Shown here in pieces: positions 7,230 to 52,132 of a DNA stretch of 64,000 bases. Every line of letters starts with the position of its first letter. The first letter of the stretch is position 1. The position numbers and the translations under genes were made by a program. The stretch comes from Escherichia coli (GTDB lineage Bacteria; Pseudomonadota; Gammaproteobacteria; Enterobacterales; Enterobacteriaceae). The notes below the pieces were generated by a model that searched no databases, was not told the origin of the DNA, and saw nothing but the letters and a program-made list of their open reading frames with translations. Location: NCBI RefSeq assembly GCF_044647545.1, contig NZ_CP172818.1; one strand, given 5' to 3'.

Positions 7230-10134
<2,905 letters not shown>

Positions 10135-10225
10135 ACAACGCCGAAGATGTTTTGGCGGATGAGAGAAGATTTTCAGCCTGATACAGATTAAATCAGAACG
10201 CAGAAGCGGTCTGATAAACAGAATT

Positions 10226-10345
10226 TGCCTGGCGGCCTTAGCGCGGTGGTCCCACCTGACCCCATGCCGAACTCAGAAGTGAAACGCCGTAGCGCCGATG
10301 GTAGTGTGGGGTCTCCCCATGCGAGAGTAGGGAACTGCCAGGCAT
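10226..10345 (+). rRNA. rrfB: 5S ribosomal RNA (rrnB operon), 120 nt
   Basis: TGCCTGGCGGCC...GGGAACTGCCAGGCAT. Confidence 0.97.
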
Positions 10346-10359
10346 CAAATTTAGCAGAA

Positions 10360-10387
10360 GGCCCAGTCGGAAGACTGGGCCTTTTTG
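10360..10387 (+). terminator. rrnB intrinsic terminator (single hairpin + T-tract)
   Basis: GGCCCAGTC-GGAA-GACTGGGCC followed by TTTTTGCG immediately after 5S. Confidence 0.8.
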
Positions 10388-10479
10388 CGTTTCTACAAAC
10401 ACTCCCTGTCGTCATAACTACAAGCCATCCCCCCACAGATACGGTAAACTAGCCTCGTTTTTGCATCAGGAAAGCAGCT

Positions 10480-11508
10480 ATGAACCACTCCTTAAAACCC
10501 TGGAACACATTTGGCATTGATCATAATGCTCAGCACATTGTATGTGCCGAAGACGAACAACAACTACTCAATGCCTGGCAGCATGCAACCGCAAAAGGAC
10601 AATCCGTTCTTATTCTGGGTGAAGGAAGTAATGTACTTTTTCTGGAAGACTATCGCGGTACGGTGATCATCAACCGGATCAAAGGTATCGAAATTCATGA
10701 TGAACCTGATGCGTGGTATTTACATGTAGGAGCCGGAGAAAACTGGCATCGCCTGGTAAAATACACTTTGCAGGAAGGTATGCCTGGTCTGGAAAATCTG
10801 GCATTAATTCCTGGTTGTGTCGGCTCATCACCTATCCAGAATATTGGTGCTTATGGCGTAGAATTACAGCGAGTTTGCGCTTATGTTGACTGTGTTGAAC
10901 TGGCGACAGGCAAGCAAGTGCGCTTAACTGCCAAAGAGTGCCGTTTTGGCTATCGCGACAGTGTTTTTAAACATGAATACCAGGACCGCTTCGCCATTGT
11001 AGCCGTAGGTCTGCGTCTGCCAAAAGAGTGGCAACCTGTACTAACGTATGGTGACTTAACTCGTCTGGATCCTACAACCGTAACGCCACAGCAAGTATTT
11101 AATGCGGTGTGTCATATGCGCACCACCAAACTCCCTGATCCAAAAGTGAATGGCAATGCCGGTAGTTTCTTCAAAAACCCTGTTGTATCTGCCGAAACGG
11201 CTAAAGCATTACTGGCACAATTTCCAACAGCACCAAATTATCCCCAGGCGGATGGTTCAGTAAAACTGGCAGCAGGTTGGCTTATCGATCAGTGCCAGCT
11301 AAAAGGGATGCAAATGGGTGGGGCTGCGGTGCACCGTCAACAGGCGTTAGTCCTCATTAATGAAGACAATGCAAAAAGCGAAGATGTGGTGCAACTGGCA
11401 CATCATGTAAGACAAAAAGTGGGTGAAAAATTTAATGTCTGGCTTGAGCCTGAAGTTCGCTTTATTGGTGCATCAGGTGAAGTTAGCGCAGTGGAGACGA
11501 TTTCATGA
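10480..11508 (+). CDS. murB: UDP-N-acetylenolpyruvoylglucosamine reductase MurB, 342 aa
   Basis: ORF track; full-length MurB. Confidence 0.95.
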
Positions 11509-50515: not shown

Positions 50516-50602
50516 CAAATTTAGCAGAAGCCCTGCGCTGGCGCACGCTCCAGCTTCACCGCGCGATAGCACTCGATAGGCGGTCGCACTTACCAGGCCA
50601 GC

Positions 50603-51046
50603 TTATTCCCCCACATATGCCAGATTCAGCAATGGATACGGTTTCCCCAAATCGTCCACCTCAGAGCGTCCCGTAACCTTAAAACCCATCTTCTTATAGA
50701 ACCCAACAGCCTGCTTATTTTGCTCATTAACATTGGTTGTCAGTTCCGGTGCCATCGAGAGCGCATGTTCCACCAGCATCCGGCCCACGCCACAACCGCG
50801 CGCATCAGGATCGACAAAAAGCGCATCCATATGCTGCCCACTTAACAACATAAACCCAACCAGCCGATCCCGCTCATTAACCGCGACCCACAACGGCGCT
50901 TCCGGCAAGAAGGAACGAACTAGCTCCTCCAGCTCGGCCCGATACTCTGCTGATAAAAAATCGTGAGTGGCATCGACAGAACGACACCAAATCGCAACGA
51001 GTTCCTCCCCTTCCTCATGCCGTGAGCGGCGAATACTAATAACCAT
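50603..51046 (-). CDS. yjaB: GNAT-family N-acetyltransferase YjaB, 147 aa
   Basis: ORF track; GNAT acetyl-CoA motif (R/Q-x-x-G-x-G/A: RGCGVGRML). Confidence 0.92.
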   Translation of the reverse strand: MVISIRRSRHEEGEELVAIWCRSVDATHDFLSAEYRAELEELVRSFLPEAPLWVAVNERDRLVGFMLLSGQHMDALFVDPDARGCGVGRMLVEHALSMAPELTTNVNEQNKQAVGFYKKMGFKVTGRSEVDDLGKPYPLLNLAYVGE

Positions 51047-51150
51047 TTTCTCTCCTTTTCGTCATTCTTATATTCTAACGTAGCCTTTTCCTTGAAACTT
51101 TCTCACCTTCAACATGCAGACTCGACATTGGCAAATTTTCTGGTTATCTT

Positions 51151-51182
51151 CAGCTATCTGGATGTCTAAACGTATAAGCGTA
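51151..51182 (+). promoter_or_regulatory. Probable MetJ operator (tandem degenerate met boxes) upstream of metA
   Basis: Four tandem 8-mers AGCTATCT-GGATGTCT-AAACGTAT-AAGCGTAT, each 5-6/8 to AGACGTCT, 20-50 nt upstream of metA ATG. Confidence 0.45.
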
Positions 51183-51202
51183 TGTAGTGAGGTAATCAGG
51201 TT

Positions 51203-52132
51203 ATGCCGATTCGTGTGCCGGACGAGCTACCCGCCGTCAATTTCTTGCGTGAAGAAAACGTCTTTGTGATGACAACTTCTCGTGCGTCTGGTCAGGAAAT
51301 TCGTCCGCTAAAGGTACTTATCCTTAACCTGATGCCGAAGAAGATCGAAACTGAAAATCAGTTTCTGCGCCTGCTTTCAAACTCACCTTTGCAGGTCGAT
51401 ATTCAGCTGTTGCGCATTGATTCCCGTGAATCGCGCAACACGCCCGCAGAGCATCTGAATAACTTCTACTGTAACTTTGAAGATATTCAGGAACAAAACT
51501 TTGACGGTCTGATAGTTACCGGCGCGCCGCTGGGCCTGGTGGAGTTTAATGATGTCGCTTACTGGCCGCAGATCAAACAGGTGCTGGAGTGGTCGAAAGA
51601 TCACGTCACCTCGACGCTGTTTGTCTGCTGGGCGGTACAGGCCGCGCTAAATATCCTCTACGGCATTCCTAAGCAAACTCGCACCGACAAACTCTCTGGC
51701 GTTTACGAGCATCATATTCTCCATCCTCATGCGCTTCTGACGCGTGGCTTTGATGATTCATTCCTGGCACCGCATTCGCGCTATGCTGACTTTCCGGCAG
51801 CGTTGATTCGTGATTACACCGATCTGGAAATTCTGGCAGAGACGGAAGAAGGGGATGCATATCTGTTTGCCAGCAAAGATAAGCGCATTGCCTTTGTGAC
51901 GGGCCATCCCGAATATGATGCGCAAACGCTGGCGCAGGAATATTTCCGCGATGTGGAAGCCGGACTAGACCCGGAAGTACCGTATAACTATTTCCCGCAC
52001 AATGATCCGCAAAACAAACCGCGAGCGAGCTGGCGTAGTCACGGTAATTTGCTGTTTACCAACTGGCTCAACTATTACGTCTACCAGATCACGCCATACG
52101 ATCTACGGCACATGAATCCAACGCTGGATTAA
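51203..52132 (+). CDS. metA: Homoserine O-succinyltransferase MetA, 309 aa
   Basis: ORF track. Confidence 0.96.

Follow-up and report, generated by a model that had tools for sequence, protein, structure and literature searches.

The interval between rrfB and murB in this Escherichia coli DNA very probably holds a normal single Rho-independent rrnB terminator (10346-10393) of a lineage without the rrB tRNA-linked repeat (TLR), that is, an ordinary allele. The window, as we call the whole stretch of 64,000 nucleotides analysed, runs from the btuB riboswitch through rrnB, murB, birA, the thrU-tufB tRNA cluster and thiC to rrnE. With the end of rrfB at 10345, fixed through alignment with MG1655 rrfB, and the murB ATG at 10480, the interval covers 10346-10479, or 134 nt, and reads in order as the leader CAAATTTAGCAGAA, the hairpin GGCCCAGTC-GGAA-GACTGGGCC, the tail TTTTTGCGTTTCTACAAAC, about 80 nt more, and the murB start codon. 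An earlier sequence-only reading had given the same 134 nt and a single terminator placed directly after 5S, and both points hold: the interval contains exactly one strong hairpin, at 10360-10381, followed by a T-tract, and its remainder is without comparable structure. The features of the region are as follows.

10226..10345, + strand: rrfB, 5S rRNA, the last gene of rrnB (Rfam RF00001 match at 10228-10343, 93.2 bits)
10346..10359, + strand: leader CAAATTTAGCAGAA, A/U-rich and T2-type, from the mature 5S 3' end to the hairpin (13 of 14 positions as in the K-12 T2 leader)
10360..10381, + strand: terminator hairpin GGCCCAGTC-GGAA-GACTGGGCC with a T1-type core (folding, covariation, 21 of 22 positions as in K-12 rrnA/rrnD T1)
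10382..10393, + strand: T-tract and proximal tail TTTTTGCGTTTC (direct reading; identical to the K-12 rrnB T2 tail)
10394..10479, + strand: rrnB-specific spacer and murB 5' region (conserved ahead of murB in genera from Escherichia to Enterobacter and Kosakonia)
10480..11508, + strand: murB, UDP-N-acetylenolpyruvoylglucosamine reductase, read in the same direction as rrnB (strain ST648, identical in sequence here, is annotated the same way in RefSeq)

The hairpin has a 9-bp stem with seven G-C pairs and a GNRA-type GGAA tetraloop, and its 22-mer occurs once in the 64-kb window against an expectation of 0. Together with its flanks it folds at -26.8 kcal/mol (z = -6.7), and none of 200 shuffles folded equally well. 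In the minimum-free-energy structure the leader at 10354-10359 pairs with 10383-10388 in the T-tract. The U-rich tract TTTTTGCGTTTC begins at 10382, directly 3' of the stem, and 10382..10393 is where release of the RNA would be expected. When 49 rrnB 3' ends were folded jointly with RNAalifold, a hairpin of 11 pairs appeared at the same position, seven of these pairs showing compensatory double changes, and the TTTTTGC after the hairpin was near-invariant across genera in the same alignment. The stretch 10360-10393 therefore combines what defines an intrinsic terminator, namely a stable G+C-rich stem-loop, an adjacent U-rich tract and compensatory change.

A rule-based terminator scan of 10000-11000 called no site, despite this textbook hairpin and T-tract at 10360-10393. 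The tool probably missed it because pairing between the A-rich leader and the T-tract makes the stem longer and leaves too few T for the run that its rule requires. We rejected the empty scan as evidence that no terminator is present, since folding and covariation give a clear one. A consensus promoter scan over the same 10000-11000 found nothing, and Rfam at a permissive threshold returned no family for the 134-nt interval nor for the spacer of K-12 described below. Open reading frames across the interval were discarded as frame artefacts that run through 5S, with no evidence of coding. On the murB side, the block ACGGTAAACTAG within 10394..10479 is conserved across genera upstream of murB. 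It includes TAAACT at 10445-10450, which may serve as a murB -10 element and is put forward here as a candidate, and an AGGA at 10468-10471, ahead of murB, is Shine-Dalgarno-like.

The corresponding interval of MG1655 is 300 nt long. It begins with the T1 hairpin, which a spacer separates from an 18-nt repeat of the 5S 3' end; the T2 hairpin comes next, ahead of the tail and the murB upstream region that MG1655 shares with the window. The sequence-only reading had described K-12 correctly as a region of about 300 nt with tandem T1 and T2 and a partial duplication of the 5S 3' end; it had also named a 134-nt interval identical in MG1655 as the result that would tell against it, and the alignment instead opens a gap of 166 columns on the side of the window. 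What K-12 has in addition is the TLR rrB, which exists in three near-identical copies at rrnA, rrnB and rrnD (Stenum et al. 2021, PMC8144298). TLR transcripts arise when T1 is read through, and their processing yields RrA, RrB and RrF, sRNAs that in vitro bind both Hfq and CsrA (PMC8144298), and an 18-bp repeat of the 5S end has been noted at the K-12 TLR (PMC8144298, Figure 1 legend). Termination in K-12 is quoted as 87% at T1 and 100% at T2 (Orosz et al. 1991, as cited in PMC8144298), and the other four K-12 rrn operons have a single terminator (PMC8144298). The seven rrn 3' ends of MG1655 that we read agree with this published picture; between rrnA and rrnB the module differs at 1 of 209 positions, and in comparison with rrnD at 11-12. 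The RrA/B/F module has been described as conserved in Enterobacterales, with mild knockout phenotypes.

Presence or absence of the rrB, rrA and rrF type of TLR accounts for the 166-nt difference in length between K-12 and the window, where it is absent. None of the marks of a K-12-type tandem (two hairpins, the 18-nt repeat, the RrB spacer) was found in the window's interval. Moreover, we could not find the 54-nt spacer core anywhere in the 64-kb window with 3 mismatches allowed, and a search of the window for the 18-nt 5S end AACTGCCAGGCATCAAAT with 2 mismatches allowed returned only the two genuine 5S ends and no extra copy.

The terminator itself is a mosaic, with a T1-type core set between a T2-type leader and a T2-type tail. 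The sequence-only reading had already pointed to the T1-like hairpin and the T2-like tail, and it had not mentioned that the leader also resembles T2. The hairpin is identical to the K-12 rrnB T1 hairpin at 20 of 22 positions and to the rrnA and rrnD T1 hairpins, which likewise have a GGAA loop, at 21 of 22; the single stem difference, T to C, turns a G-U pair of T1 into a G-C pair in the window. However, the flanks of T1 are different, its leader CAAATAAAACGAAA and tail TTTCGTTTTATCTG forming an 18-20-bp stem of -32.6 kcal/mol, and T1 precedes the RrB spacer, whereas the window hairpin stands in T2-type surroundings. With K-12 rrnB T2 the window terminator has in common its position relative to murB, the tail TTTTTGCGTTTCTACAAAC (19/19), the leader CAAATTTAGCAGAA (13/14), the outer GGCC...GGCC stem pairs and the design in which an A-rich leader pairs with the U-tract. 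The cores are distinct, ATCCTGACGGAT in T2 and CAGTCGGAAGACTG in the window, and the 8-bp T2 stem at -22.7 kcal/mol is predicted to be less stable than the 9 bp of the window. T2 also follows the 5S-end repeat, whereas the window hairpin directly follows the true 5S.

A third arrangement is found in BL21/C41(DE3), whose rrfB-murB interval measures 132 nt and carries a pure T2-type single terminator. It has the compact one-terminator layout of the window, the same tail and no TLR, but its core is T2-type. K-12 rrnG and the rrnB operons of other Enterobacteriaceae, too, show one hairpin directly after 5S and then TTTTTGC, as in the window; the core type of these single terminators differs, most genera having ATCC...GGAT or another sequence. 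The rrfB-murB junction is hence polymorphic in E. coli, existing as a tandem (K-12, 300 nt), a single T2-type terminator (BL21, 132 nt) and a single terminator with a CAGTC core (window, 134 nt).

To explain the hybrid, the sequence-only reading had proposed a collapse of T1 and T2, which would mean that this strain or its lineage once had a K-12-like T1-spacer-5S'-T2 arrangement whose duplicated 5S-end segments, the 18-nt repeats, recombined with each other. The direct repeat does flank the extra DNA in K-12, and the T2-type leader of the window is as this proposal predicts, but the proposal fails at the hairpin. A crossover within the 5S-end copies removes T1 and the spacer and therefore leaves 5S, the T2 leader, the T2 hairpin and the T2 tail, so that GGCCATCCTGACGGATGGCC would be retained where the window has a CAGTC core. 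The BL21 allele fits that outcome, being either the product of such a recombination from K-12 or the state before insertion of the TLR. As the window allele is moreover present in ~39% of complete genomes and in E. whittamii, and its nearest relatives have no T1-spacer copy anywhere, we consider this collapse very improbable. A T1-type core between T2-type flanks requires another crossover point and further changes, or another history, and presence or absence of the TLR alone does not explain it.

The window allele is far from private. We read it directly in O157:H7 Xuzhou21, in EC958 (ST131), in an O6:K2:H1 strain and in FDAARGOS_1268, and the rrfB-murB region is 100% identical to that of many complete genomes, including ST648-type strains. 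Counted from megablast matches by coverage and identity thresholds rather than by inspection of each genome, a CAGTC-core terminator joined to the rrnB-specific tail (66-nt junction query) occurs in ~2123 of 5426 complete E. coli genomes (~39%), and the K-12 spacer joined without a break to the murB-proximal tail, the mark of a tandem at rrnB (spacer-to-murB query), in 2516 of them (46%), 55989 included. The remaining ~790 genomes are presumably BL21-like or other. Over the whole 134 nt, 197 records from complete E. coli genomes show 99% identity or more; coverage of this query is unusable for counting because megablast aligns through the differing core, genomes of the K-12 type scoring 91% over the full length. 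The single form was seen in strains that we assign to phylogroups B2, E and F, and the tandem in strains of A and B1, with BL21 as a phylogroup A strain that has the single form. We found no paper on strain-to-strain variation of the rrfB-murB interval in the literature searched, where Stenum et al. 2021 alone dealt with the K-12 tandem and the TLR.

Such recurrence also bears on whether the compact interval could be a tandem repeat region collapsed by the assembler. Several rrn operons do carry the T1-spacer module, and such repetition can confuse assemblers, but dozens of independent complete genomes contain the 393-nt sequence from 5S to murB at 100% identity, 267 records match it at 99% or more, and the architecture is that of the ~2123 genomes above, which makes an artefact hardly credible. 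These data suggest that the window allele is old and common, rather than a recent collapse, and that it is not specific to one strain.

Taken apart from its position, the T1-spacer sequence is present in 3978 of the 5426 complete E. coli genomes and absent in ~27%. The module occupies a median of 2 places per genome and up to 10, and its location varies (rrnA, rrnB and rrnD in K-12, rrnE in BL21). To follow TLR presence genome-wide we joined the spacer to a unique segment of murB and searched with this chimera. The nearest relatives of the window, GF131 (100%) and 23CRST013 (99.9%), match it at the murB place only, and therefore carry no TLR anywhere. The rrnA and rrnE operons were compared in FDAARGOS_497, a genome that matches the window exactly at rrnB; the assembly of the ST648 strain is rearranged, and the K-12 spacing lands there in an unrelated region. 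In FDAARGOS_497 the single CAGTC-core terminator of rrnB recurs at both rrnA and rrnE with near-identical flanks, which appears to be evidence for concerted evolution of rrn 3' ends.

Outside E. coli, murB gave tblastn matches in 80 loci, and a 5S gene lies directly upstream of it across the Enterobacteriaceae. Among 47 informative species loci from Enterobacteriaceae and neighbours, anchored on MurB with one genome per species and including many draft assemblies that break at rRNA repeats, 45 have a single hairpin terminator after 5S without the spacer module. The T1-spacer-5S'-T2 order before murB was seen only in Kluyvera genomosp. 3 and Citrobacter portucalensis. Within the genus, E. whittamii has a 134-nt interval of the CAGTC type (GGCTCAGTCGAAAGACTGAGCC), and hairpins of the ATCC type stand in the 132-nt intervals of Escherichia sp. 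E1V33 and strain E69. E. albertii reads GGCCCGGTCGAAAGACCGGGCC in a contig that begins at the leader, so that single and tandem forms look alike there. The compact single terminator thus appears to be the norm of the family. At rrnB, outgroups and the basal lineages of E. coli share the one-terminator form, and the tandem of K-12 is there more likely to be derived, a polarity drawn from one genome per species and a few E. coli reference strains with phylogroups taken from general knowledge.

The origin of the mosaic may then lie further back. In one possible though doubtful account, a tandem region in an ancestor of Escherichia lost its spacer by deletion between the 7-nt GGCCTTT shoulders that T1 and T2 both have 3' of the hairpin core, so that a T1 hairpin was fused to a T2 tail, after which 2-3 substitutions would have made the leader T2-like and restored pairing, and gene conversion would have spread the result. 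GGCCTTT does follow both the T1 and the T2 hairpins. The 14-nt core CAGTCGGAAGACTG is that of rrnA/rrnD T1, a likeness far beyond chance, and the leader of EC958 departs from that of T1 at no more than ~3 of 23 positions. A T1 with the CAGTC core is old, being identical in Kluyvera, and the single CAGTC type was met only in Escherichia among the 47 species loci; the presence of the same terminator at rrnA, rrnB and rrnE of one genome also agrees with this account. However, it requires extra changes in the leader or a second exchange, a homology of 7 nt is very short for RecA-dependent recombination, and an intermediate with T1 leader, T1 hairpin and T2 tail was not seen in the sequences examined.

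The ancestry might also run the other way. The single CAGTC terminator would then be the old resident rrn terminator of Escherichia and the T1 of the TLR its paralogue, CAGTC and ATCC cores having been exchanged by short conversion tracts with no recombination between T1 and T2. Consistently with this, single terminators with either type of core exist in Escherichia other than E. coli, the spacing staying at 132-134 nt, and hairpin cores turn over between genera while position and flanks stay fixed. Outside Escherichia, however, the only CAGTC core that we saw was that of T1 within the TLR of Kluyvera, which suggests that T1 is the older carrier and slightly favours an old T1-derived origin; we regard the reversed ancestry as unlikely. 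A short conversion patch is a further option for how the mosaic arose. The fuller version of the T1-derived history, in which the 134-nt allele is a fossil of an ancient excision of the rrB TLR by exchange between T1 and T2 at the hairpin shoulders and then spread through rrnA, rrnB and rrnE by gene conversion, is offered only tentatively, and with slightly more doubt than the fusion at the shoulders taken by itself. If true, about a quarter of E. coli, including the lineage of the window, would be natural nulls for the Hfq- and CsrA-binding RrA, RrB and RrF; rrnB would have one terminator there instead of two, and readthrough from this very strong operon into murB-birA could change.

On the reading that we prefer, a normal single terminator in a lineage without the TLR, RNA polymerase would complete 5S, transcribe the 14-nt A/U-rich leader and then the 9-bp G+C-rich hairpin with its GGAA loop, whose stem could be extended to ~15 bp by pairing of leader and U-tract, and the transcript would be released at the U-tract UUUUUGCGUUU, ~90 nt ahead of murB. 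The same hairpin is probably the 3' end of the pre-5S precursor. By analogy with the 9S RNA of K-12, the leader is likely the site of pre-5S 3' processing, and leader and hairpin together the part trimmed from the pre-5S 3' end. What is known of K-12 rrnB suggests, in addition, that the hairpin stops antitermination-modified polymerase before it reaches murB. What the sequences show directly is the anatomy, the predicted fold, the conserved position with covariation, and the distribution among strains and outgroups; that the element terminates transcription, that it takes part in processing and which way the alleles changed are what we infer. The T1-T2 tandem of K-12 would correspond to the resident single terminator with a TLR module of 166-168 nt, made up of the T1 hairpin, the RrB sRNA sequence and the 18-nt 5S-end copy, placed between 5S and that terminator, and the three junction alleles would have been shuffled among rrn operons through gene conversion. 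More transcription from rrnB may reach murB-birA in single-terminator strains than in K-12.

The element is well understood and the allele common. The picture of rRNA operon termination is unchanged, and for that of strain polymorphism the result has minor descriptive value. The rrnB T1T2 cassette of vectors represents one allele, of the K-12 type, found next to murB in ~46% of genomes, and not the norm of the species. That ~27% of complete E. coli genomes are missing the RrA/B/F module fits the mild phenotypes of its knockouts. The 3' ends of rrn operons can be regarded as exchangeable cassettes, which matters for markers and for the inference of rrn-mediated rearrangements.

In Escherichia sp. 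MOD1-EC7003 a ~300-nt extra segment with an ORF-like stretch is present upstream of murB; it sits between a T2-type terminator with a rrnA/rrnG-type tail and the murB upstream region, and represents another rearranged junction allele.

At the other end of the window, the 3' flank of rrnE (50516-50602, with the differing block at 50522-50598) is missing the terminator hairpin in comparison with the nearest complete genome, FDAARGOS_497. A 46-nt deletion takes out the CAGTC hairpin and the T-tract, and small indels and a 15-nt insertion accompany it; the flanks of the block are identical to FDAARGOS_497 over 1.2 kb. We could not find any terminator-like site on the + strand between rrnE and either the convergent yjaB (50603-51046, - strand) or the co-directional metA (from 51203 onward), and the block gave no match in searches of the 5426 complete E. 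coli genomes nor in two exact-match scans of metagenome contigs. We see in it either a real but rare allele or an artefact of assembly.

The neighbourhood of rrnE varies as well. MG1655 has yjaA and a terminator of its own between rrfE and yjaB, and in the window (50516-51203), 55989, BL21/C41(DE3) and FDAARGOS_497 the convergent yjaB comes directly after rrnE. Some 55 nt downstream of the MG1655 rrnG terminator (TCCCACATATGCCAGATTCAGCAACGGATACGGCTTCCCCAA...) resemble the 3' end of yjaB by rrnE (window 50600-50660), a likeness that suggests a past exchange between rrn operons carrying flanking DNA. Finally, the leaders after both 5S genes of the window (10351-10352 and 50521-50522) read CAAATTTAGC, where most E. 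coli have CAAATTAAGC. FDAARGOS_497 has the TTT leader variant only at rrnB, and the variant shared by the two operons of the window hints at a local conversion from rrnB to rrnE in the source of this DNA.
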